The notes under the pieces are model-generated. The model was not told the origin of the DNA. It made no database searches and saw nothing but the letters and a program-made list of their open reading frames with translations. This document shows, piece after piece, positions 4,277 through 58,195 of a DNA stretch of 64,000 bases. The stretch comes from a virus. Where the stretch lies: IMG/VR virus record IMGVR_UViG_3300050343_000182; one strand, written 5' to 3'. How positions within the stretch are numbered: the first letter of the stretch is position 1; each line of letters begins with the position of its first letter. The translations under genes were made by a program, and so were the position numbers.

Positions 4277-4284
4277 CATAAATA
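4277..4284 (+). promoter_or_regulatory. T4-type late promoter variant (CATAAATA)
   Basis: One mismatch to TATAAATA, intergenic, upstream of g8. Confidence 0.6.
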
Positions 4285-23295: not shown

Positions 23296-23704
23296 GTATG
23301 ACGGCATTGAGGAAGCACTCGATGTCGCTAGCGAAATCGTCCCTGAAGCAAAACCCGAACCTATTGTGCCTGTAGAGAATCCCGTCTCTACTCAGGATCA
23401 ACTGAAGAAAGACTATGAGTATACTCGTGGCAATCTATACTCCCTGATTGAAAAAGGTCAGGAAGCAGTAGATGGAATTCTTGAGTTAGCACAACAATCC
23501 GATCAACCTCGTGCGTTTGAGGTTGCTGGTCAATTGATCAAGCACGTTGGCGACGTGGCGGACAAACTCGTAGACCTTCAAAAGAAAGTCAACGATATCG
23601 AAAATCCCAAAAAATCTAAAGAAGTTAACACTACAAACAATACCATGTTTGTAGGTAGCACAGCAGATCTCGCCAAGTTTCTAAAACAACAACGCGATAA
23701 ATAG
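23249..23704 (+). CDS. g16: Terminase small subunit gp16 (start uncertain)
   Basis: DYEYTRGNLYSLIEKGQEAVDGILELA..PRAFEVAGQLIK, NNTMFVGSTADL. Confidence 0.85.
   Translation: MSMQKITTQSQDKTSKYDGIEEALDVASEIVPEAKPEPIVPVENPVSTQDQLKKDYEYTRGNLYSLIEKGQEAVDGILELAQQSDQPRAFEVAGQLIKHVGDVADKLVDLQKKVNDIENPKKSKEVNTTNNTMFVGSTADLAKFLKQQRDK
23696..23703 (+). promoter_or_regulatory. T4-type late promoter variant (GATAAATA)
   Basis: Overlaps g16 stop, 25 nt before the first island ORF. Confidence 0.55.
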
Positions 23705-23727
23705 AATCGTAGGAGTACGTATTAACA

Positions 23728-24261
23728 ATGTCAGTATTAAATGTCATTGACACCCAAACCATTTCTGCAAGTGGCAGTGGCTACGTTGTGGTGAAGTCAG
23801 GTGTCCTCCGCTGCTATGCAGCATCAGCGTCCACTATCAAGATTGATGCTGGTCCTGCCGTAACACTTGCAGCAGGTGAAGCACTGCTCCTGTCTTGCGG
23901 TAAGGCAAAGAATGCACAAATCAACGCGATGACTGATGCAGCAGCTGCTGTTATCACCGTCCTTGGTGGTGGCACCCCCGCACATAAGTTTGCTGTTGGA
24001 GATTATATCGCAACTGAAGCAAATAGTGATGCAGCGTTTACAAGTGATTTTGTATCTGCTGGATCTGGTGGTAAGAAAGTAACTGCGGTTTCAAATACCA
24101 CAATCACTACTGACTATGACAGTAGTGCAGCAAGTGCTGATTATGCCCTGGGTACTGCAAAGGTTGCAGCAGGCACTGTCCCCGCACTTAAGCGTGCAGT
24201 TAAACTCACTGCTGGAGGAGCCGACGTTGTAGTCGAGCAAGTCCAAGTGGTTGGTGGTTGA
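23728..24261 (+). CDS. Hypothetical protein, probably structural
   Basis: 177-aa Ala/Val/Thr/Gly-rich ORF after a late-promoter motif. Confidence 0.65.
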   Translation: MSVLNVIDTQTISASGSGYVVVKSGVLRCYAASASTIKIDAGPAVTLAAGEALLLSCGKAKNAQINAMTDAAAAVITVLGGGTPAHKFAVGDYIATEANSDAAFTSDFVSAGSGGKKVTAVSNTTITTDYDSSAASADYALGTAKVAAGTVPALKRAVKLTAGGADVVVEQVQVVGG

Positions 24262-24288
24262 TCACACTAATTAAATACAGAGAAGCAC

Positions 24289-26403
24289 ATGAAATCCTTT
24301 TCACAAATCGCTGCCCTCAGTGAGGAAGACTACGACAAGATGAAAGACCGCCAACTAGAGCGTGGTGGTATGGGAGCTCGTAGTAGTAAAGCACCTATTG
24401 GTAAACCAAATACGTTTGGTAAGAAACCTGCAGGTAAAACTCCTCTACAGAAAGATGCAGATAAGAAGTATGGTGCTGGCACCTCTGCAATAGACAGAGT
24501 AAAGGCAGACATCACTGCTAAGTATGGCAAGGGTGCCATCATGAAGACTAAGAAAGAAGAGACTGACCTGGGAGAAGGTAAGAAAGGTCTCTGGGACAAC
24601 ATTCATGCCAAGCGTAAGCGTGGTGAAGCACCTGCTAAGAAAGGATCTAAGGACTATCCTAAGACTCTCGAAGTGGAAGGTTATGCTCCTGGTGACGTTG
24701 ACCAGAAGGTTGGCGCAGTAACTGCTATTCCTAAGAAGGATCAGGATGATGCAAAGGCACGCATCCTTGCTAAGACTAAGGCAAAGAGAGCTGCCAAACT
24801 ACAGAAAGAAAGTGTCTTCGATCAAGTTGACATCTTTGCTGAGTTGAATGATTGGGAGGTCTCACTCCTTAGCGATACTCTTATTGAAGAGATCGTGGCA
24901 GAAGTCTTCGTTGAGGAGATGGCAGAAGGTAGAGATATTGATCACGTCACAGAGATGCTCTGTGAGTCTGTTGACTATTCACTGAGTTTACTCACTGAGG
25001 TTACCAGTCCTGCTAAGGTCAATGCTCTTCGCTTGAAGGACAAAGCATCTGCTGCTTCTGGTGAAGGACAAAGTGCTGGCAAGGATGCTGGTGCTGAAGC
25101 AAGGAGTCGTATCGGAAGTGGTTCTTCATCTAGATCCGATAAACTTGCCAAGGTTAAGAGTGCTGCTCAGAAGGTTGGGTCTGCACTGAAGTCTGGTCTT
25201 AAGACTGGCGCTAAACTGGCACGCAAAGGTGCTGTCAAGGGTGCTGAAGTTGCTGGTAAGGCAGCAGGACACGCGAAAAATCTCGCGAAAGACATGGGTA
25301 GTGCCGCTAAGAGTGGTTACAAGTCCACCCAATCGTCTTCCCCTTCTAAGGATTCTGAGACTACCTCTTCTAATCCCACTACGTCATCTTCTGATTCTTC
25401 CTCTAGCAGCAGTGACTCCTCTTCTAGCAGCAGCGATTCAGGTCCTAAGAAGCCTGGTCTGCTCAGCAGAATTGGTAGCAAACTGAAGCGTGGTATTAAG
25501 AAAGCAGTTGGTGCTGGTGCGAGATCCCTTTCCCGTGGTGCTCGTGGAGTAGCACGCAGAATGGGTGAATCTGTTATTGTCGAGCGTGGTGACCATTGGC
25601 ATCCAGATCCTGAGCAGGATCGTAAGTTGGGTGGTCCTGGTGCTAATGCTCGTGCTCGTGAAGATCGTGCTGATGCAGCAAAACCTAAGACAGATCCTAA
25701 GAAACTGAAGAAGGGTGAGTCCTACATGGACTACTCCAAGCGTCAGAAGGCAGCAAGGTCTGGCACTGCTACTAGCAGATTGAATAAGTTGGGTGCTAAC
25801 ATCAAACCCAAAGAGCGTAAGCGCGACAAGATCGGTAAGGCAATCGGTAAAGCACTCGATAAGATCGGTGGTATCAAGCGTGAGGAAGTGACTACACTTT
25901 CATTCAGTGCATTCCTTGCAGAAGGTAATGCTACTGGTCGCATGATGCAGAAGTCAAAGACTCAGGTTACTGGACACATCAGTGCTGATAGAGGGTCTGA
26001 CGAAAAAAAGAACCGTGCGGGTCGTAAAGGACTCGAAAAGGATCTAAAGAAGCATGGCATCGGACACAAGAAAGGTGTCGGTGAGTATAAGTATGACAGT
26101 GGAGAAACTGGACGCGAAGTGTCCTATCAGACCTCAAAACCTGATAAGATGAGTAAGCGCAGATTCGGTAAAGTTATGCGTCGCATGGGACGCAAGCACG
26201 GGCAAGAATCCGTGATCACCAAGGACAAGGACAAGTCTGCTAAACTTCACTATACTGAGAAGGGCAGTAAGGCAAAGTCTGATTCTATTGGTAAGACCAA
26301 AGCAGGCAAACATCCCGAAGGGTATGGCGAAACCTCTGGCACCAAAGCTAGAAGTGGCAAACTACCTAAGAAAACTACTAAAGGAGCTTATCATTATGGC
26401 TGA
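24289..26403 (+). CDS. Putative internal-head polyprotein with C-terminal SAM-lyase-like domain
   Basis: 704 aa; Lys-rich modules bounded by L/I-X-E sites; C-terminal ISADR...GEY...REVS...GQESV pattern. Confidence 0.6.
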   Translation: MKSFSQIAALSEEDYDKMKDRQLERGGMGARSSKAPIGKPNTFGKKPAGKTPLQKDADKKYGAGTSAIDRVKADITAKYGKGAIMKTKKEETDLGEGKKGLWDNIHAKRKRGEAPAKKGSKDYPKTLEVEGYAPGDVDQKVGAVTAIPKKDQDDAKARILAKTKAKRAAKLQKESVFDQVDIFAELNDWEVSLLSDTLIEEIVAEVFVEEMAEGRDIDHVTEMLCESVDYSLSLLTEVTSPAKVNALRLKDKASAASGEGQSAGKDAGAEARSRIGSGSSSRSDKLAKVKSAAQKVGSALKSGLKTGAKLARKGAVKGAEVAGKAAGHAKNLAKDMGSAAKSGYKSTQSSSPSKDSETTSSNPTTSSSDSSSSSSDSSSSSSDSGPKKPGLLSRIGSKLKRGIKKAVGAGARSLSRGARGVARRMGESVIVERGDHWHPDPEQDRKLGGPGANARAREDRADAAKPKTDPKKLKKGESYMDYSKRQKAARSGTATSRLNKLGANIKPKERKRDKIGKAIGKALDKIGGIKREEVTTLSFSAFLAEGNATGRMMQKSKTQVTGHISADRGSDEKKNRAGRKGLEKDLKKHGIGHKKGVGEYKYDSGETGREVSYQTSKPDKMSKRRFGKVMRRMGRKHGQESVITKDKDKSAKLHYTEKGSKAKSDSIGKTKAGKHPEGYGETSGTKARSGKLPKKTTKGAYHYG

Positions 26404-26521
26404 AACTAAGAAGTGTCGTTACTGTGGCATCACGGTGCCTGTTGGACACCAGCGTCCTAAGACGTGGTTAGAAAAGCATGAGAAGAATTGTGCTAACAAC
26501 CCTGACAATGTAGAAGAATGA
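26396..26521 (+). CDS. Small C2HC zinc-finger-like protein (41 aa)
   Basis: AAGGAG upstream; MAETKKCRYCG...KHEKNCANNP. Confidence 0.55.
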   Translation: MAETKKCRYCGITVPVGHQRPKTWLEKHEKNCANNPDNVEE

Positions 26522-26787
26522 AATCCTTTAATGAATTCATTACTGAAGACTGGCAGAAAAAGTCAGGTAAAAACTCTGAAGGAGGACTAAATGAAAAAGG
26601 ACGGAAGTCGTATGAGCGTGAAAACCCAGGAAGCGATCTTAAGGCACCTTCAAAAAAAGTTGGGAACCCTCGTAGAAAGAGTTTTTGTGCGCGAATGAGC
26701 GGGATGAAGAGGAAACTCACATCTAAGAAGACAGCGAGCGATCCAGATAGTAGAATAAATAAATCACTGAGAGCTTGGAATTGCTAG
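26518..26787 (+). CDS. Basic protein with capsid-targeting-like N-terminus
   Basis: MKSFNEFITE resembles T4 internal-protein leader MKTYQEFIAE; remainder is Lys/Arg rich (RRKSFCARM...SLRAWNC). Confidence 0.7.
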   Translation: MKSFNEFITEDWQKKSGKNSEGGLNEKGRKSYERENPGSDLKAPSKKVGNPRRKSFCARMSGMKRKLTSKKTASDPDSRINKSLRAWNC

Positions 26788-27458: not shown

Positions 27459-28115
27459 ATGAAAATCTTTTTAGATACTGCTGATGTCTCTGAAATTAAA
27501 AAGGCATACAGCACAGGGTTGATTGATGGCGTCACTACAAATCCGACACTAATTTTGAGATCGGGTGACACCCTTTATAATGTAGCATCAAGACTACTTA
27601 AGGAATGTCCAGAACTTATCAGCGTCTCCACGGAGGTGGTTGCCGAGACAGCTGACGAAATGATTGAGCAAGCAAAAACTTACTTCCCACTAGGTGAAGC
27701 AGTTACAATTAAAGTCCCTTGCACTGTAGAGGGACTGAAGGCATGTAAGGTCCTCTCAGCAGAAGGGATCAAGGTCAATGTAACTCTCATCTTCTCAGTA
27801 GCACAAGCACTGCTAGCGGCGAAAGCAGGGGCAGCATACGTGTCTCCTTTCATTGGTCGCTGTAATGATAACTCATTCAGTGGCATTGAGTTGGTCCGTG
27901 CAATCGCTAATGCATTCAGTGTGCAGATGATGCCTACAGAGATCCTTGCAGCGTCCCTGAGGGATGTGCATCACGTCTCAAGGTGCTATACTTATGGTGC
28001 TAGTACCGTTACTATGCCACCTAAGATCTTCTGGAAGATGTATGATCACGTCTTGACTCGCGAGGGACTTGATCAATTCCAGAAAGACTGGGAATCTGCA
28101 AACACCACAGGCTGA
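27459..28115 (+). CDS. talC: Transaldolase, TalC/FSA family
   Basis: MKIFLDTAD, DGVTTNPTLI, IKVPCT, VNVTLIFS, YVSPFIGR, ILAASLR. Confidence 0.95.
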   Translation: MKIFLDTADVSEIKKAYSTGLIDGVTTNPTLILRSGDTLYNVASRLLKECPELISVSTEVVAETADEMIEQAKTYFPLGEAVTIKVPCTVEGLKACKVLSAEGIKVNVTLIFSVAQALLAAKAGAAYVSPFIGRCNDNSFSGIELVRAIANAFSVQMMPTEILAASLRDVHHVSRCYTYGASTVTMPPKIFWKMYDHVLTREGLDQFQKDWESANTTG

Positions 28116-28119
28116 CACT

Positions 28120-28590
28120 ATGAAAGTTGGGATGATTACTCTTGGTCGTATGGGTGAGGACATTGCTCGCCGTATGATGCAGGATGAGATCAGCGTATTT
28201 TCTTATCAACAGAATTACGAGTTATCAAGTGAGCAGTATGATGCTGGATACATTAGTGGATGCACCACTAGCATCCCACTTCTGGTTGATCAGATTAAGA
28301 AGAAGATGGTATACGGAGTTAAGTCTGGAGAGTCAGTCTTGTTTGAAGAGTCTGGTATCTTTATGCTGTGCATTCCACCTGAGAATGTTGAGCACACACT
28401 TGACCAGTTGTTACCATTAATGGTTGAGGGAGATGTCCTCATCGATTTAAGCAGCTCCGATGCAAAAGCATGTCAAGAGTTAGAATTGTATTGCTCCAAG
28501 TTGGGCATTGCATATATCTACTCTAATGTCTTTGGGTCAAGAGTTGCAATTGACACATGTAGAAAAATCTTTCGCTCGTTAGCACCATGA
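28120..28590 (+). CDS. Truncated, degenerate 6-phosphogluconate dehydrogenase-like protein (nucleotide-binding domain only)
   Basis: MKVGMITLGRMG, GYISGCTTS, EGDVLID, IFRSLAP track phage Gnd N-terminus but the ORF stops at 156 aa. Confidence 0.7.
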   Translation: MKVGMITLGRMGEDIARRMMQDEISVFSYQQNYELSSEQYDAGYISGCTTSIPLLVDQIKKKMVYGVKSGESVLFEESGIFMLCIPPENVEHTLDQLLPLMVEGDVLIDLSSSDAKACQELELYCSKLGIAYIYSNVFGSRVAIDTCRKIFRSLAP

Positions 28591-36983: not shown

Positions 36984-38618
36984 ATGTCACAACTATTTGG
37001 TTATTCCCTAGATCGAAAGAAAGGTAAGGGCTCTGCGAAGGGTCCTTCTTTCGTGCATAAAGACAATGACGATGCCGCGCAACCCATTGCTGCTGGTGGA
37101 CATTTTGGTCAGTATGTAGATCTGGGAGACTCGGCAAACAAGTCGAGCGATGTCGATCTTATTGGTCGGTATCGTGGAATGTCTTTGCATCCTGAAGCGG
37201 ATGCAGCAATTAATGACATTGTGAATGAGGCAATCGCTGGAGATCTTGACGATCACCCTGTTGATATTGAGCTTTCAAATCTTAAAGTGTCTGACGCTAT
37301 TAAGACTCGTATCAGAGAGGAGTTTGAGAATGTTCTCAGTCTCCTCGATTTTGATAGAAAGGCATACGATATCTTCCGTAGATGGTATATCGATGGTCGC
37401 CTCTTTTACCATAAGATGATTAACCCTGATAATCCCAAGGAAGGGATTACAGAGTTGAGGTATATTGATCCTCGCAAAATCAAGAAAGTTATCGAGTATG
37501 ATAAACCCAAGGATCGCATTTCACCTGCAGATCCACAGGTCAACGTGCTGATTCCTAAGGCAGTTGAGTATTATATTTACGCGCCTAAGGGTCTACGCGG
37601 TTACGAAAACAATGGAATCAAGATTGCACCTGATGCAATTTGCTATGCCCACTCAGGGCAACTTGATATGCAGCGCAACACTGTGCTGTCACACCTCCAT
37701 AAAGCAATTAAAGCACTCAATCAACTGAGAATGATTGAGGATTCGCTTGTTATCTATCGTCTCTCTCGCGCACCCGAGCGTAGAATTTTCTACATCGATG
37801 TGGGTAACCTGCCTAAGCAAAAGGCAGAGCAATACCTCAGAGAGGTGATGTCTCGCTACAGAAATAAGTTGGTGTATAACGCTGACACTGGTGAGATTCG
37901 TGATGACAAGAAATTCATGTCTATGCTGGAAGATTTCTGGTTGCCAAGACGTGAAGGTGGACGCGGCACTGAGATCACCACACTCCCAGGTGGACAAAAC
38001 CTAGGTGAGTTGGAGGATGTCAAGTACTTCCAGAAGAAACTCTACAGGTCACTCAACGTACCTGAGTCACGTCTAGAATCTGACTCTTCTTTTAACGTTG
38101 GTAGGTCTGCAGAGATCACCCGTGACGAAGTTAAATTCCAAAAATTCGTCGTTAGACTCCGCAAGAAGTTTGGTGATCTGTTTAACGATCTGCTTAAGAC
38201 TCAACTTATTCTGAAAGGTGTCTTCACACCTGAAGAGTGGGAAGATATGAAAGAGCATATTCAATATGATTTTGTTGCTGACAACTACTTCGCTGAGTTG
38301 AAAGAGCAAGAGATCATGAATGCTCGTATGGCACTTCTGCAGCAGATGGACCCATTCGTGGGCAAATACTTCTCGCTGGAATACATGCGTCGTCAGATCC
38401 TTAAGCAACCTGATGCCCTATTCAAGGACATCGATAAGGATATGGCGCAAGAGATCAAAGACGGTAAGGTCATTGATCCTATGCAAATGCCAGCAATGGA
38501 AGTAGAGCAAATGGCAATGTCACTCCAACCAGAGCCAGTTGATCCTGAGCAACAAGCTATGGATCAATACGCGCAGCAGGGAATCGATCCTGCGGATCGT
38601 AAAAAAGGAGATTTCTAA
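36984..38618 (+). CDS. g20: Portal protein gp20
   Basis: WYIDGRLFYHK, YRLSRAPERRIFYIDVGNLP, EDFWLPRREGGRGTEITTLPGGQNLG. Confidence 0.98.
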   Translation: MSQLFGYSLDRKKGKGSAKGPSFVHKDNDDAAQPIAAGGHFGQYVDLGDSANKSSDVDLIGRYRGMSLHPEADAAINDIVNEAIAGDLDDHPVDIELSNLKVSDAIKTRIREEFENVLSLLDFDRKAYDIFRRWYIDGRLFYHKMINPDNPKEGITELRYIDPRKIKKVIEYDKPKDRISPADPQVNVLIPKAVEYYIYAPKGLRGYENNGIKIAPDAICYAHSGQLDMQRNTVLSHLHKAIKALNQLRMIEDSLVIYRLSRAPERRIFYIDVGNLPKQKAEQYLREVMSRYRNKLVYNADTGEIRDDKKFMSMLEDFWLPRREGGRGTEITTLPGGQNLGELEDVKYFQKKLYRSLNVPESRLESDSSFNVGRSAEITRDEVKFQKFVVRLRKKFGDLFNDLLKTQLILKGVFTPEEWEDMKEHIQYDFVADNYFAELKEQEIMNARMALLQQMDPFVGKYFSLEYMRRQILKQPDALFKDIDKDMAQEIKDGKVIDPMQMPAMEVEQMAMSLQPEPVDPEQQAMDQYAQQGIDPADRKKGDF

Positions 38619-38644: not shown

Positions 38645-38893
38645 ATGCCAACCCAATCCGCGCTTGAGATCGTCAACGCATTGTTTGCAGGTCAAAAAGA
38701 TCTATCAGACTACGTTGATTCTGCTATGAAAGTCGTAGCGGTTGATCAAATTGACGCCAAGAAGCAAGAAGTCGGATCCTCAATGTTTAAGGAACCCGAC
38801 GAAACACCTGAAGTCGAAGCATCTGCAGAGACCGAGGTAACTGATACCCCACCAGAGGAAACAACAGATGAGACTGATCAGAGAGGAGATTGA
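38645..38893 (+). CDS. Prohead core protein (gp67-like position)
   Basis: Small acidic ORF between g20 and g21. Confidence 0.6.
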   Translation: MPTQSALEIVNALFAGQKDLSDYVDSAMKVVAVDQIDAKKQEVGSSMFKEPDETPEVEASAETEVTDTPPEETTDETDQRGD

Positions 38894-39515
38894 ATCCGCA
38901 AAGGTAACGATCACTGAAGGTAAGGATGGTAAGAAACGCCACTTTATCGAAGGTGTTTTCTTGCAGGGTGAGATCAAAAATAGAAATGGTCGCATGTATC
39001 GCGCCGAAACTTTGCAACGTGAAGTTGCTAAATACAACGAGCAATACATCACCAAAGGTCGCGCACTAGGTGAGTTGGGTCATCCTGATGGTCCTACTAT
39101 TAATCTTGACCGCGTGTCTCATCTAATTACTTCTCTGCAAAGAGAGGGTAACAACTTCGTAGGTAAGGCAAGACTTCTCGATACCCCCATGGGTAACATC
39201 GCTAGAAATCTTCTCGACGAAGGTGTAAAACTAGGTGTATCTTCGAGAGGTCTTGGATCTATCAAAGAGGAAGGTGGTATTAAAGTTGTCGCTGATGACT
39301 TTATGCTTGCCACTGCTGCGGATATCGTAGCAGATCCTTCTGCCCCTGACGCTTTTGTCAATGGCATTATGGAAGGAAGAGAGTGGGTCTATGCTGGAGG
39401 CGCAATCCAAGAGCAAAGAATCGAGAAGATTAAACAGAGAATTGATAACGCCCACCGTTCTCAGTTGGATGAGATGAAACTTTCCGCGTTTCACTCCTTC
39501 ATCAAAAATCTTTAA
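38868..39515 (+). CDS. g21: Prohead protease gp21
   Basis: FIEGVFLQ..KNRNGRMY, RALGELGHP, LGVSSRGLGS, DIVADPSAPDA. Confidence 0.97.
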   Translation: MRLIREEIESAKVTITEGKDGKKRHFIEGVFLQGEIKNRNGRMYRAETLQREVAKYNEQYITKGRALGELGHPDGPTINLDRVSHLITSLQREGNNFVGKARLLDTPMGNIARNLLDEGVKLGVSSRGLGSIKEEGGIKVVADDFMLATAADIVADPSAPDAFVNGIMEGREWVYAGGAIQEQRIEKIKQRIDNAHRSQLDEMKLSAFHSFIKNL

Positions 39516-39565: not shown

Positions 39566-40600
39566 ATGTCACAAGAGATTGAAACAACTCTGGATGAATC
39601 GAGTGTAACCGCTGGCGCAAAACCTGCCGAACCACAGCCCAAACTGGGCGCTGACGGTAGTAGTCTCGCTGGAGTACAAGATCTCGGTGGTCCAACACCA
39701 CAGAATAGCAAACCCACAGATGACAGCAATAAGTATAAGACTGTTGCTGGTGGAAATGCTGCTGCACCCACAACAAAACCCTCTGACGCCTCTGGCGCTA
39801 AAGCAGAATTTGCTGCTAAGGGTGATGTGAAGGCAGGTCACGAGCCCGAGGGCGATGTGATTGCTGAAGAGCCTCAGGAGACTGTAATTGAAGTAGACCT
39901 TTCTGCTGATGTTGCTGCTCTTACCGAAGGTGAAGAGCTGACTGAAGAATTCAAAGAGAAAGCAAAAACGATCTTTGAAGCAGCAGTCGTATCACGCATC
40001 AACGAAGAGTTGGAGCGTATGCACGAGGACTACGCTAAAGTCCTTGAAGAAGAAATTGAGTCTGTTAAGTCCGACCTCGCAGAAAAAGTCGATGAGTATC
40101 TGACTTATGCTGTTGGTCAATGGATGACAAAGAATGAGCTCGCCATTGAGCAGGGTATCAAAACCGAAATGGCTGAGTCCATGCTTGCAGGTCTCAAGCA
40201 AGTTTTCGTGGAGAACTATATTGATCTCCCCGAAGAAAAAGTTGATGTTGTAGAAGAAATTCAGACACAACTCGATGTAATGGAAACAAAACTCAACGAG
40301 TCTATTGAAGAAAATGTCGAGCTTAATAAGAGCGTCGGCACCTATATCAAGAATGGGATTGTGACAGAGATCGCTGAGGGACTATCACTCGCTCAACGCG
40401 AGAAGATTGTATCCCTGGCGGAAGCTGTTGAGTTTGAAAATGAAGAGTCTTTCCGTGCGAAGGTCTCTACCCTCCGTGAATCGTATTTCTCCACTAAGCC
40501 TGAAGTGACTACTGTCACTGAGGATGTCCAAGTTGAGAATCTTCCTGTTGGTGACGCTATGGCAGCATATGCCCAAGCGATCTCCCGCTGGAACAAGTAA
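39566..40600 (+). CDS. g22: Prohead scaffold protein gp22
   Basis: EEFKEKAKTIFEAAV, VDEYLTYAVGQWM, F.AKVSTLRESYF; between g21 and g23. Confidence 0.92.
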   Translation: MSQEIETTLDESSVTAGAKPAEPQPKLGADGSSLAGVQDLGGPTPQNSKPTDDSNKYKTVAGGNAAAPTTKPSDASGAKAEFAAKGDVKAGHEPEGDVIAEEPQETVIEVDLSADVAALTEGEELTEEFKEKAKTIFEAAVVSRINEELERMHEDYAKVLEEEIESVKSDLAEKVDEYLTYAVGQWMTKNELAIEQGIKTEMAESMLAGLKQVFVENYIDLPEEKVDVVEEIQTQLDVMETKLNESIEENVELNKSVGTYIKNGIVTEIAEGLSLAQREKIVSLAEAVEFENEESFRAKVSTLRESYFSTKPEVTTVTEDVQVENLPVGDAMAAYAQAISRWNK

Positions 40601-40630: not shown

Positions 40631-41992
40631 ATGTTTAACGCAGAATCACTCCAGGAAAAGTGGAACCCCATTCTTGAGCACAATGAGCTCGATCCTATTA
40701 AGGATACCTACAGAAAGGCGGTTACCTCAGTCCTCTTGGAGAACCAAGAAAAATTCCTTAAGGAAGAGCGCGGTCTGGTAACAGAAGCTGCTCCTACTAA
40801 CTCACTGGGCGGCACTGGCTTCTCAGGTGGCAGCACCGCAACTGGTCCTGTCGCAGGTTTCGACCCTGTGCTGATCTCTCTGATCAGACGCTCCATGCCT
40901 AAGCTTATTGCTTATGACATCTGCGGCGTGCAACCAATGACTGGTCCTACTGGACTGATCTTTGCAATGCGCTCCACAACGGGCACCAACAGAGACATCG
41001 CTAACAGCGGCGTTGAGACTTTCTTCAACGAAGTTAACTCCGAGCATTCTTCCGAGAATAGTGCAAACGGTCTTGCATCTAACACTCAGACTGGATCTAA
41101 TCCTGGTCTGCTTGCTGATGGTGCTGGTCAGTACACGATCGGCGGTCAGGGCATGACCACTGCTCAGTCTGAAACACTGGGTGATGGCGCTTCTAACCAC
41201 TTCAACGAAATGGGCTTCTCGATCGAGAAGGTCACCGTTACTGCGAAGTCAAGAGCTCTGAAAGCAGAATACAGTCTTGAGCTTGCTCAGGACCTTAAGG
41301 CAGTCCATGGTCTGGATGCCGAAAGCGAGCTTGCAAACATCCTCAGCACTGAAGTGCTGGCAGAGATCAACCGTGAGGTTGTCCGTACTGTTTACAAGAT
41401 TGCTCGTCCTGGCGCTCAGAACAACACTGCAACTGCAGGTGTGTTTGACCTCGACGTTGACTCCAACGGTCGCTGGTCAGTTGAGAAATTCAAAGGTCTT
41501 CTCTTCCAAATCGAGAGAGACATGAATGCGATTGGTCACGAGACTCGTCGTGGGAAGGGCAACATCCTCATCTGCTCTGCTGATGTGGCTTCCGCTCTGT
41601 CCATGGCTGGTGTGCTTGACTACACCCCTGCTCTGTCTGGTAACGCTCAGTTGCTGCCCGACGACAACAGCAGCACCCTTGCTGGTACGCTTAACGGTCG
41701 TATTAAGGTCTACGTCGATCCTTACTCTGCCAACGTTTCCGATGCTCACTTCTATGTGGCTGGTTACAAAGGTAGCAGTGCTTATGACGCAGGTCTCTTC
41801 TACTGCCCTTATGTGCCCCTCCAGATGGTCCGCGCTGTGGGTCCTGATACCTTCCAACCAAAAATTGGATTTAAGACTCGTTACGGAATGGTCGCTAACC
41901 CATTCGCTGAAGGTCTTACCCAAGGTCAAGGTGCTCTCACCGCTAACGCTAACCGTTACTACAGACGTGTTAAGGTCACCAACCTCATGTGA
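40631..41992 (+). CDS. g23: Major capsid protein gp23
   Basis: KWNPILEH, FDPVLISLIRRSMP, GVQPMTGPTGLIFAMR, KSRALKAEYSLELAQDLKAVHG, FQPKIGFKTRYG. Confidence 0.99.
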   Translation: MFNAESLQEKWNPILEHNELDPIKDTYRKAVTSVLLENQEKFLKEERGLVTEAAPTNSLGGTGFSGGSTATGPVAGFDPVLISLIRRSMPKLIAYDICGVQPMTGPTGLIFAMRSTTGTNRDIANSGVETFFNEVNSEHSSENSANGLASNTQTGSNPGLLADGAGQYTIGGQGMTTAQSETLGDGASNHFNEMGFSIEKVTVTAKSRALKAEYSLELAQDLKAVHGLDAESELANILSTEVLAEINREVVRTVYKIARPGAQNNTATAGVFDLDVDSNGRWSVEKFKGLLFQIERDMNAIGHETRRGKGNILICSADVASALSMAGVLDYTPALSGNAQLLPDDNSSTLAGTLNGRIKVYVDPYSANVSDAHFYVAGYKGSSAYDAGLFYCPYVPLQMVRAVGPDTFQPKIGFKTRYGMVANPFAEGLTQGQGALTANANRYYRRVKVTNLM

Positions 41993-55866: not shown

Positions 55867-56066
55867 TGATTGAAAAGAGGAGAGCACAAGTTAAGTCCAA
55901 ATTTTATTACATCTTCTGGGGTGTTGCTACTGTTTCAGTACTGCTAGGTCAACTCTATGTTGGTAGTGGATACCGTAAGTTGCATTACTCTATGGAAGAT
56001 CTAATTAATAAGGTTAACGGTGTGTTGTTGGAGGCAAAACCAAATCCATATGAGGGATACATGTGA
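55866..56066 (+). CDS. Small membrane protein
   Basis: FYYIFWGVATVSVLLGQLYVGSGYR TM segment. Confidence 0.6.
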   Translation: MIEKRRAQVKSKFYYIFWGVATVSVLLGQLYVGSGYRKLHYSMEDLINKVNGVLLEAKPNPYEGYM

Positions 56067-56728
56067 GGCAAAATTACGAAGCACTAAACTTCTTTCCTGT
56101 CCAGTGTTATGAGTTTCGTTGTGATCAATTTTTAGTTGACACTACTCTAGGTCTTTTACAAGACGTAGAGTATAAAGCATACAACGAACCTACTGGTGTT
56201 AAAACAAGCGATGACATTCATCGTAGGGAAGTATTCAAACCACTCATGTCCTGGTTTCAGGAGTGTGTGGATACCATTCACTTTGATGCTGGTTACGATT
56301 GTGATCGTCTGGCAGTCAATAAGGCATGGGCAAATAGATCCCTAGCAAATTCTGCTCATCATCATGATGCTCACAGACATCCTATGTCTTATCTGAGTGG
56401 TATCTTCTACCTCACTAAAGGTGCTCCTACAATCTTTGTTGACCCCCTCTTCCAGAGAGAGTGGGGATCTTTCCATTTAGATGGTAAAATCGCTCAGGAG
56501 TTGGCATTTCATGGTGGTCCAGGTGGGTTGGTTGTATTTCCTAGTTACATGATCCATGCTAGTTTACCCAATCATGATGATGTTGATAGGTATACTATTG
56601 CCTTCAATACCTATCCTGATGGGGGTATTAACCAAGGCGGATGGGGTAAACCTATGAGTAAAGTCAAAGTAGAATCATGGAATGATGATCTTGGACCATT
56701 GAAACTTAGTGACTATGCAAGGGACTGA
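56063..56728 (+). CDS. 2OG-Fe(II) oxygenase, TIGR02466-like
   Basis: W.N, HRHPMSYLSGIFYL, F.DP, LVVFPSYM.H, RYTIAFN. Confidence 0.8.
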   Translation: MRQNYEALNFFPVQCYEFRCDQFLVDTTLGLLQDVEYKAYNEPTGVKTSDDIHRREVFKPLMSWFQECVDTIHFDAGYDCDRLAVNKAWANRSLANSAHHHDAHRHPMSYLSGIFYLTKGAPTIFVDPLFQREWGSFHLDGKIAQELAFHGGPGGLVVFPSYMIHASLPNHDDVDRYTIAFNTYPDGGINQGGWGKPMSKVKVESWNDDLGPLKLSDYARD

Positions 56729-57353
56729 AGTACATATGTTTCCTGTCGTGTGCAGGACATATCAACAACCAGACGAGACTCTCAATCAACGTGTGATTGA
56801 ATCAATGGATGGGTATCCTGCTCAGCAGTCCAACTTTCCTGAAGGTGTCATTACTTCACGTCCTGATCTCCATAAACTTGAGGAGGGTCCTATCACAGAG
56901 TTGAGGCAGTTCTTCTGGGACTGTCTGGCAGAGTATAGGTATGCCTACAAACTCTACTGTGATGCCTTAGAGATCTCTTCTATGTGGTTTAACCATGCAC
57001 CTGCAGGGAGTGGGTATGGACACCCCTTACACAGGCATCCAATGTCCTATCTGAGTGCTGTCTACTACCTCACTCCAGGTGCTCCTACCTTCTTTGACGA
57101 TCCTGTTACACCTCGGACATACGACACACTAGATGTCTTCCAAGGTGATATGATGGAGCGTGATTGGGGTATCAATGAAAAGGTTGATGCACAGGAGAAT
57201 AAACTTATTCTCTTTCCCTCCTGGTTACGACACTACTCAGGTCGTCAACTAGATAACTATGACCGTTGGACTATTTCATTTAATGTATTCCCTTGTGGAA
57301 ACATAAATGTAGGTCCATTTGAAATGCCACAACTACACGTCTCTATACAATGA
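56709..57353 (+). CDS. 2OG-Fe(II) oxygenase, TIGR02466-like (paralogue)
   Basis: WFN, HRHPMSYLSAVYYL, LILFPSWLRH, RWTISFN. Confidence 0.8.
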   Translation: MTMQGTEVHMFPVVCRTYQQPDETLNQRVIESMDGYPAQQSNFPEGVITSRPDLHKLEEGPITELRQFFWDCLAEYRYAYKLYCDALEISSMWFNHAPAGSGYGHPLHRHPMSYLSAVYYLTPGAPTFFDDPVTPRTYDTLDVFQGDMMERDWGINEKVDAQENKLILFPSWLRHYSGRQLDNYDRWTISFNVFPCGNINVGPFEMPQLHVSIQ

Positions 57354-58195
57354 AGTATTTGAAAACTCCACTCCGTTATCCTGGTGGTAAATCAAGGGTA
57401 GCAAAGACGTTGCTTGAGAAATTCCCAAGTGAGATCAATGAATTTCGTGAGCCCTTCGTGGGTGGTGGGAGTGTAGCACTGCTATTCTCTCAGAAGTATC
57501 CTGACGTTCCCATATGGATTAATGATAAGTATGTCTACCTCTACAGTTTTTGGAAGATGCTCCAAGAGCGTGGCGATGAGTTATCGGATACTCTCTACAA
57601 TATCAAAGTCGAAAACAGCACGGAAGAAAAAGCGAAAGAGTTATTCGTATCTGCTAAAGCAGAGATATCCAACGCAGATACTTTTCGCCAAGCTGTGCTC
57701 TTTTGGATTCTTAATAAGTGTAGCTATAGCGGGTTGACTGAAAACTCTTCCTTCTCTAAGACTGCATCCAATCAAAACTTCACCACCCGTGGTGCTCATA
57801 ACCTGAAGAATATCTCTGAGATCATTCAGCACTGGCGTATCACTAACCTAGATTACCAGACCGTAATGAATACTGAGGAGGGGTTGAGTAATACATTCAT
57901 CTTCCTGGATCCTCCATACAAGATCAACACATATCTCTACGGCACTAACGCCGAGATGCATAAGAATTTTAACCACACTCAGTTTGTGGAAGACTGTAAG
58001 GTATGTCCTCACAGTTGGTTGGTTACATACAACATTGACGATGAGTTGAAAGAAGCATATACTGACTACCATCAAGAAGAGTTTCGTATTACCTATGGTA
58101 TGAAGCACCGTCCAGATAATAAACTCAAGACTGAATTGTTAGTTACCAACTTCACTGAATCCACTCCTCTGGCATCCCTTTATGAAACAGTATGA
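57350..58195 (+). CDS. dam: DNA adenine methyltransferase (D12/Dam family)
   Basis: PLRYPGGKS, EPFVGGGSV, IND, FLDPPY. Confidence 0.9.
   Translation: MKYLKTPLRYPGGKSRVAKTLLEKFPSEINEFREPFVGGGSVALLFSQKYPDVPIWINDKYVYLYSFWKMLQERGDELSDTLYNIKVENSTEEKAKELFVSAKAEISNADTFRQAVLFWILNKCSYSGLTENSSFSKTASNQNFTTRGAHNLKNISEIIQHWRITNLDYQTVMNTEEGLSNTFIFLDPPYKINTYLYGTNAEMHKNFNHTQFVEDCKVCPHSWLVTYNIDDELKEAYTDYHQEEFRITYGMKHRPDNKLKTELLVTNFTESTPLASLYETV

Follow-up and report, generated by a model that had tools for sequence, protein, structure and literature searches.

Why does a cyanophage carry a domain of the S-adenosylmethionine (SAM) lyase family at the end of a long protein encoded in its late structural block? 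The question is raised by an open reading frame (ORF) at 24289-26403 (forward strand) in the virus record IMGVR_UViG_3300050343_000182, of which we analyzed a stretch of 64,000 nucleotides (the window). The ORF encodes a predicted precursor of 704 amino acids (aa; 75 kDa, isoelectric point (pI) 9.95), consisting of a variable basic carrier (residues 1-545) and a C-terminal SAM-lyase domain of the T3 type (residues 546-704). SAM lyases are known as early-expressed counter-defense enzymes of T3-like phages, and IPI* of phage T4 is an injected anti-restriction protein. The reading we favor, at a probability of roughly one half (about 0.52), brings the two together: a late precursor would be packaged into the phage head and cut by the gp21 protease, and the released SAM lyase would be injected and deplete the SAM of the next host before phage gene expression.

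The C-terminal domain and the SAM-lyase family

A preliminary description of this DNA had proposed a SAM-lyase-like domain at residues 546-704, and the searches bear this out. Pfam family PF23780 (S-AdoMet_lyase; cut-off 28 bits) matches residues 546-704 (25924-26400, forward strand, which translate to exactly these residues) at 32.9 bits (E 7e-8) and the whole protein at 28.8 bits, and most of the homologues have a precomputed PF23780 match. A single-sequence phmmer search of the PDB with the domain gave no match; only the family profile reached the T3 and Svi3-3 enzymes. Run against 177,635 PDB sequences, this profile of 41 relatives, with identities as low as 23%, matched only the T3 SAM lyase (E 1.4e-6) and Svi3-3 (E 0.007). 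Its alignment pairs iSAeRg with VSAFRS, GeY with GCY and GVY, EkS with EKT and ENS, and QeSV with QDCV and QESV; the motifs that the preliminary description gave for these enzymes (VSAFR, G-x-Y, E-x-(S/T), and Q-(E/D)-(S/C)-V) are thus aligned one to one with T3 and Svi3-3. The earlier placement of GEY (598-600), REVS (609-612), and QESV (639-642) was correct, as was that of the domain start, GNATGR, directly after SFSAFLAE; only ISADRG had been misplaced, since it starts at residue 564, not 546.

The predicted fold gives the same answer. We modeled the domain with AlphaFold (AF2) from the 41-relative alignment (predicted local distance difference test, 87; predicted template-modeling score, 0.82), and compared the model with 48,161 PDB representatives independently of Foldseek: the best match was the T3 SAM lyase (chain 7ock_L; Z 13.3 over 135 residues, root-mean-square deviation 3.1), the only chain of the 48,161 with a Z score of at least 8, followed by Svi3-3 (6zm9, Z 7.6). 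Foldseek, which had been suggested as a check, returned SAM lyases for all of the top seven matches of the AF2 model, and an earlier, shallower model of the domain gave the same structural ranking. The T3 enzyme (SAMase, gp0.3; 7OCK, 8BB1) shares the fold, with 135 of 152 residues aligned, and the motifs SA-R...N, G-x-Y, E-x-S/T, and Q-D/E-x-V, although the sequence identity to the domain is only about 12-16%; its chemistry and counter-defense logic are presumably the same. Svi3-3 (6ZM9, 6ZNB; Z 7.6-8.2) is a weaker match than T3, and differs from the cyanophage domain in lacking its longer conserved C-terminal tail, which ends in H-Y. A complex prediction with three copies of the domain and SAM scored 0.00, and bears neither way on a trimer.

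The active site is retained in full. Proven SAMases have exactly three strictly conserved residues, Gly56, Glu69, and Gln104 in Svi3-3 numbering (Guo et al., PMC7877911), and only three columns are invariant in the 41 diverse relatives of our domain: G598, E610, and Q639, the equivalents of these residues. G598-E-Y600 (26080-26088, forward strand) corresponds to G56-V-Y58 of Svi3-3 (ribose packing, and a cation-pi contact with the SAM sulfonium), E610-V-S612 (26116-26124, forward strand) to E69-N-S71, and Q639-E640-S641 (26203-26211, forward strand) to Q104-E105-S106 (binding of the homoserine moiety). Tyr58, Ser71, Glu105, and Ser106 line the Svi3-3 active site, and E69 is essential, with the E69Q mutation costing about 4500-fold in activity (PMC7877911); the domain has equivalents of all seven of these residues. 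The domain is 90-91% identical to its counterparts in cyanophages S-SZBM1 (91% for the orthologue S-SZBM1_194) and P-TIM40, with a ratio of nonsynonymous to synonymous divergence (dN/dS) of 0.04-0.09 at dS above 1, where synonymous divergence is saturated; it is under strong purifying selection. Among the distant relatives, P0148 has a cyanophage-like gene context, whereas the context of P0208 is uninformative. By profile and modeled fold, membership of the domain in the S-AdoMet_lyase family, of the T3 SAMase/Svi3-3 type, is established, and it very likely converts SAM to 5'-methylthioadenosine and homoserine lactone.

Two other readings of the domain can be weighed against these data. The predicted mature domain is small and basic like the T4 internal proteins (159 aa, 17.5 kDa, pI 10.2, 26% lysine plus arginine), and it might have lost its activity and be kept only for its role as a basic protein inside the head, e.g., in DNA condensation or as scaffold filler. 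We regard this as most improbable, given that all ligand-binding residues of active SAM lyases are kept, invariant across relatives at 23% identity, and given the low dN/dS. Alternatively, the domain could cleave a derivative of SAM, such as SAM-AMP, the signal of type III CRISPR systems, and act as an anti-CRISPR protein like phage AcrIIIB4. SAM-AMP lyases (the C. botulinum enzyme and AcrIIIB4; 9GAB, 9GAD) do share the PII-like fold, the conserved glutamate and glutamine (PMC12255297), and the homoserine-lactone-yielding chemistry; but their AMP pocket is extended and their T-loop differs, they do not take SAM as a substrate, and they show low similarity to the domain (Z 5.5, compared to 13.3 for the T3 SAM lyase; Foldseek template-modeling score about 0.3). 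The family profile had no match to SAM-AMP lyases at an E-value of 1 or below, and the G-x-Y and Q-E-S motifs fit the SAM-lyase pattern, so that there is little to recommend this reading.

Capsid-targeting-like motifs at the domain boundary and in virion proteins

The capsid-targeting sequence (CTS) of T4 reads MKTYQEFIAE; positions 4 and 7 matter for targeting, positions 8 and 10 matter for processing, and gp21 cuts after L/I-x-E (PMC9026906). Immediately in front of the SAM-lyase domain, residues 538-545 of the 704-aa protein (25900-25923, forward strand) read SFSAFLAE/G (the slash marks the predicted cut, after E545), in agreement with the T4 sequence at positions 3, 4, 7, 8, 9, and 10. Predicted gp21 sites of the L/I-x-E type are LAE545/G, at the boundary, and LSE12/E, near the N-terminus. 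Among the real forward-strand genes of the window, only two contain the motif: the 704-aa ORF and a DUF6321 gene (see below). The window also encodes the corresponding head-processing genes, including the gp21 prohead protease, which is the predicted processing enzyme (Peptidase_S77, 116 bits; 38868-39515, forward strand), the gp22 scaffolding core (T4_CASP; 39566-40600), and gp23 (40631-41992); gp20 is located at 36984-38618.

The motif follows the domain across its family. It ends at the domain boundary in 122 of the 133 close homologues that have upstream sequence, and the 11 motif-less homologues listed still have a glutamate directly before the glycine of the domain. Stand-alone forms of the domain begin with the leader (for example, MKSFKQFIAE/GN and MKTFSQFMAE/GN), as do 39 of the 106 profile matches of at least 130 aa (for example, MKTYQEFMLE and MKTFQEFITE), where we estimate that about 0.2 would be expected by composition. 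Since the leader motif is not within the Pfam domain, and neither T3 nor Svi3-3 has it, it is not part of the enzyme fold. A 153-aa form (P0004) that starts MMQKS looks like a gene-calling truncation.

The DUF6321 gene (89 aa; 26518-26787, forward strand) starts with a full CTS, MKSFNEFITE/D, and its mature part would be a protein of 8.9 kDa with a pI of 10.4. DUF6321 is fused C-terminally to a SAM lyase in a metagenomic protein of 251 aa (P0017), and the leader makes the DUF6321 protein a candidate for a second packaged protein. A Cys/His-rich micro-ORF of 41 codons (MAETKKCRYCG...HEKNC; 26396-26521, forward strand) overlaps the stop of the 704-aa ORF by 8 nt; its counterpart in S-SZBM1 (SSZBM1_193, 45 aa) is annotated and has the same 8-nt overlap, and from this arrangement the micro-ORF looks conserved and translationally coupled.

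The carrier in front of the domain is of another nature: residues 1-545 are basic and of low complexity, with modules that recur in other cyanophage proteins (PHROG matches), and can be aligned to the S-SZBM1 and P-TIM40 proteins at 28-29% identity in a forced alignment. A Protein Atlas search with residues 1-545 returned a single lead (0.78), to a viral cluster without a name. Within the carrier, an acidic helical block at about residues 170-240 (24796-25008, forward strand) holds 9 of the 14 [LIVM]-x-E sites of the precursor; P0125 has the same block as an N-terminal module, and the block may be a scaffold-binding element or a spacer that is cleaved.

Is the leader found in proteins that are in the virion? 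We scanned every possible start in the genome of cyanophage S-CREM2 (OR473000) with a strict leader pattern, M-x-x-[FYWL]-x-x-[FYW]-[LIMVF]-x-E, and compared the matches with its published virion proteome (mass spectrometry; Table 3, PMC10665884). The strict leader was found at six annotated starts, and five of these six proteins were detected in virions, compared to a background of 52/219 (Fisher p=0.003): the SAM lyase gp6, the kinase gp14, the cytidylyltransferase gp154, gp13, and gp136. They include all three of the "regulatory" virion proteins that had puzzled the S-CREM2 authors, and the leader may account for the "non-structural" proteins that turn up repeatedly in virion proteomes of cyanophages. 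As listed, gp13, gp14, gp136, and gp154 have the CTS-like starts MKRFDAFLTE, MKNFSSFLTE, MKDLHSFLTE, and MQTFSMFFSE; separately, the "Cas9-like" virion protein gp12 contains LRFASFMAE near its N-terminus.

S-CREM2 gp6 is a close parallel to the protein described here. It is a T4-like cyanophage protein and a member of the same Pfam family (PF23780 at 70 bits), is matched by the cyanophage profile (as relative P0202), and begins with the leader MKDFDSFLEE. As a "SAM hydrolase" it was found in virions with 19 peptides, and its authors proposed in 2023 that it enters with the DNA to counter restriction-modification (R-M), while cautioning that abundant regulatory proteins may co-purify with virions (PMC10665884); the paper did not note a targeting or cleavage motif. 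The architecture of the two proteins differs: gp6 (414 aa) has the domain in its N-terminal part, following a leader at the N-terminus, and the gene lies in an early-looking region with a dam gene two genes away, whereas in the 704-aa protein the domain is C-terminal, the leader is internal, and the gene lies in an island between gp16 and gp17. In the literature that we searched, we found no paper linking SAM lyases to capsid-targeting sequences.

The combination differs from the known systems that it resembles. The T3 enzyme is not preceded by such a motif, whereas the domain described here ends a 704-aa protein of the late block, behind a capsid-targeting and protease-site motif. IPI*, IPII, IPIII, and Alt of T4 have leaders of about ten residues with aromatics at positions 4 and 7, are cut by gp21 after L/I-x-E, are small and basic, and are delivered together with the DNA, IPI* being an anti-restriction protein. 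These T4 cargoes, however, are single proteins with an N-terminal leader and are unrelated in sequence to the domain, while here an enzyme would be the cargo, placed at the end of a long precursor built of modules, and the leader is internal.

Genomic position and expected timing

The window derives from a T4-like cyanomyovirus (Kyanoviridae), and its DNA is similar to that of Synechococcus and Prochlorococcus myoviruses. The gene order is gp14, gp15, gp16, an island (petE, talC, and a gnd-like gene), gp17 to gp23, and then replication genes and a Dam-like methyltransferase. The 704-aa ORF lies between gp16 and gp17, within the late structural block gp13-gp17, and is preceded by gp16 and a DUF7243 gene. 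Orthologues are found at the same position in P-TIM40 (769 aa), S-SZBM1 (707 aa), and P-SSM4 (222 aa), each annotated as "hypothetical", and the nearest record (G001) contains the same gene as well as gp21. The DUF7243 neighbor shows no similarity to S-SZBM1_195, an abundant virion protein encoded at the same position.

A late-promoter-like ATAAATA box is located at 23697-23703 (forward strand), 25 nt before the DUF7243 gene; the 704-aa ORF comes next, 28 nt past the end of DUF7243. There are ten ATAAATA matches in the window, every one on the forward strand, and seven of them are 31-48 nt before an ORF start, including those of gp20 and gp22; forward-strand boxes are at 4278, 13723, 23697, 26755, 36952, 39519, and 42864. 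By sequence and placement, the boxes are consistent with T4-type late promoters. An exact T4 late promoter (TATAAATA) was not found upstream of the 704-aa ORF, where the shorter ATAAATA box is present instead. We also considered a separate early promoter or an internal start for the domain, and rejected it: no sigma-70-like promoter was predicted on the forward strand at about 24150-26200, so none is predicted ahead of the SAM-lyase domain.

Marine metatranscriptome assemblies of four studies contain the stretch at 99% identity or above, which speaks for its presence only. In three of these studies, RNA-library contigs break at 23701-23713, at the ATAAATA box, which is at most a weak hint that these breaks mark a transcript start; the gaps in RNA-contig cover in runs X3-X5 are not interpretable.

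In contrast to gp0.3 of T3, which is expressed as the first early gene and so removes SAM ahead of restriction, the domain is encoded in a late structural block, behind an ATAAATA box. The enzyme may act as that of T3 does, but its timing would have to come from packaging rather than from early transcription. Incoming DNA gains no protection from a SAM lyase made late in infection if the particle does not bring the enzyme along, and from this we infer that the position of the gene is in itself an argument for packaging.

The phage also encodes a SAM-consuming enzyme of its own, as the preliminary description had noted: a Dam-like N6-adenine DNA methyltransferase of the D12 class (PF02086, 104.5 bits) at 57350-58195 (forward strand). 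Directly upstream of it are two tandem 2-oxoglutarate-Fe(II) oxygenase genes (56063-57353, forward strand). In the gp16-gp17 island, the gnd-like ORF (173 aa; 28069-28590, forward strand) adjoins talC and matches only the NAD-binding domain of 6-phosphogluconate dehydrogenase (PF03446); although truncated, this form is retained with its ORF intact. The phage plastocyanin (petE) had a sole match among genome contigs, at 70% identity, to NYWG01000069.1 (35.7 kb, "MAG: Verrucomicrobiales bacterium"), which is probably a cyanophage contig mis-binned into a Verrucomicrobiales metagenome-assembled genome.

Proposed delivery, its alternatives, and its meaning

We propose the following course of events. 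The 704-aa late precursor would co-assemble with the prohead scaffolding core, drawn into the prohead by T4-type capsid-targeting signals, a loose one at the N-terminus and the full one at residues 538-545. There the phage gp21 would cut after the glutamate of L/I-x-E sites, including LAE545/G and probably others too, and the freed 17.5-kDa, very basic enzyme would be retained in the head with the DNA. When the next host is infected, the enzyme would leave the head together with the genome and drain the SAM pool of the small cell before any phage gene is read, and the loss of SAM would blunt SAM-dependent processes such as type I R-M, BREX (bacteriophage exclusion), and host methylation. We infer catalysis, packaging, cleavage at E545, ejection, and the target host process; on the motif evidence, the virion probably carries the domain and injects it along with the DNA. 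Of the earlier interpretation, the identity of the enzyme is thus strongly supported, and packaging and the gp21 cut after LAE are supported indirectly. Head targeting and injection are well motivated but unproven, and an anti-restriction purpose is uncertain, given how few defense systems can be recognized in marine picocyanobacteria.

Several observations weigh against this proposal. For the T4 CTS, function has been demonstrated only in an N-terminal position (PMC9026906), and the full CTS-like motif here is internal, without T4 precedent. The N-terminus of the precursor, MKSFSQIAALSE (24289-24324, forward strand), is loosely CTS-like, having F4, a hydrophobic residue at position 7, and LSE/E at residues 10-12, but it fails the strict leader motif; and the S-SZBM1 and P-TIM40 orthologues have no N-terminal leader, starting instead with an unrelated MPAVSKKQQRFFG module. 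S-SZBM1_194 (707 aa), the nearest orthologue from a phage with a virion proteome, is absent from the 30 proteins detected in S-SZBM1 virions, as are the leader-bearing S-SZBM1_191 and S-SZBM1_192. The phage's own Dam uses SAM, which raises a conflict of timing with a SAM lyase. Finally, recognizable active defense systems were found in only 4 of 17 marine picocyanobacterial strains (PMC6708340). The S-SZBM1 result weakens the case for delivery without refuting it, because that proteome is shallow (it missed 8 of the 32 proteins predicted to be structural) and trypsin gives only five peptides of 7-30 aa from the domain (TQVTGHISADR, YDSGETGR, EVSYQTSKPDK, HGQESVITK, and HPEGYGETSGTK).

The same non-detection fits an explanation in which a real SAM lyase acts late in the producing cell and is not functionally delivered, any virion signal being carry-over of an abundant late protein. 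The enzyme might then stop methylation of progeny DNA or redirect methionine/SAM metabolism; the position of the gene in the late block and the S-CREM2 authors' warning on co-purification are in keeping with such a role. We nevertheless judge it unlikely: it leaves both the targeting and cleavage motif at the domain boundary of the 122 homologues and the leader-virion association in S-CREM2 without explanation, and it would set a late cytoplasmic SAM lyase in competition with the Dam of the phage.

The scarcity of known defense systems in marine picocyanobacteria bears on a different alternative, that the enzyme is packaged and injected as proposed, but for a general take-over of the host by SAM depletion, possibly together with inhibition of MetK as in T3. 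The best structural match of the domain is the T3 SAM lyase from complexes with MetK (7OCK, 8BB1), an enzyme that also blocks SAM synthesis. On the other hand, every characterized phage SAM lyase has been tied to evasion of R-M or BREX; inventories of picocyanobacterial defense systems are incomplete, and MetK binding by this domain would be an analogy with T3. A take-over function is in our view rather unlikely.

A broader, tentative idea, which we hold to be rather unlikely as a whole, is that T4-like cyanophages use modular "internal-protein polyproteins", in which a SAM lyase (here) or a kinase and a cytidylyltransferase (elsewhere) would each follow a capsid-targeting sequence and a gp21 site. 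With its long N-terminal carrier the precursor would be zymogen-like, keeping the SAM lyase inactive in the producing cell and sparing SAM for Dam; gp21 would arm the enzyme in the prohead, and the internal CTS would be both address and release site. That a zymogen-like precursor would resolve the Dam conflict is speculation.

What is new here is the combination of a T3-type SAM lyase with T4-type internal-protein delivery; the concept was partly anticipated by the 2023 S-CREM2 paper, which reported a virion SAM hydrolase without the targeting logic. If the proposed packaging and injection are true, they join a SAM lyase with an injected protein, i.e., the enzyme would be delivered ready-made and would act before any phage transcription. 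Svi3-3 turns over about 9.5 times per second (PMC7877911), and at this rate tens of molecules could clear the SAM pool of a small host in seconds to minutes, assuming, as we do, roughly 10^4 SAM molecules per cell. For the "non-structural" proteins in cyanophage virions, the T4-type leader provides a testable rule, which holds for five of the six leader-bearing proteins of S-CREM2. The proposal would also offer a function for T4-GC 110, a conserved and unannotated gene family of abundant ocean viruses, and it raises the question of which SAM-dependent process matters in hosts that have few known defense systems.

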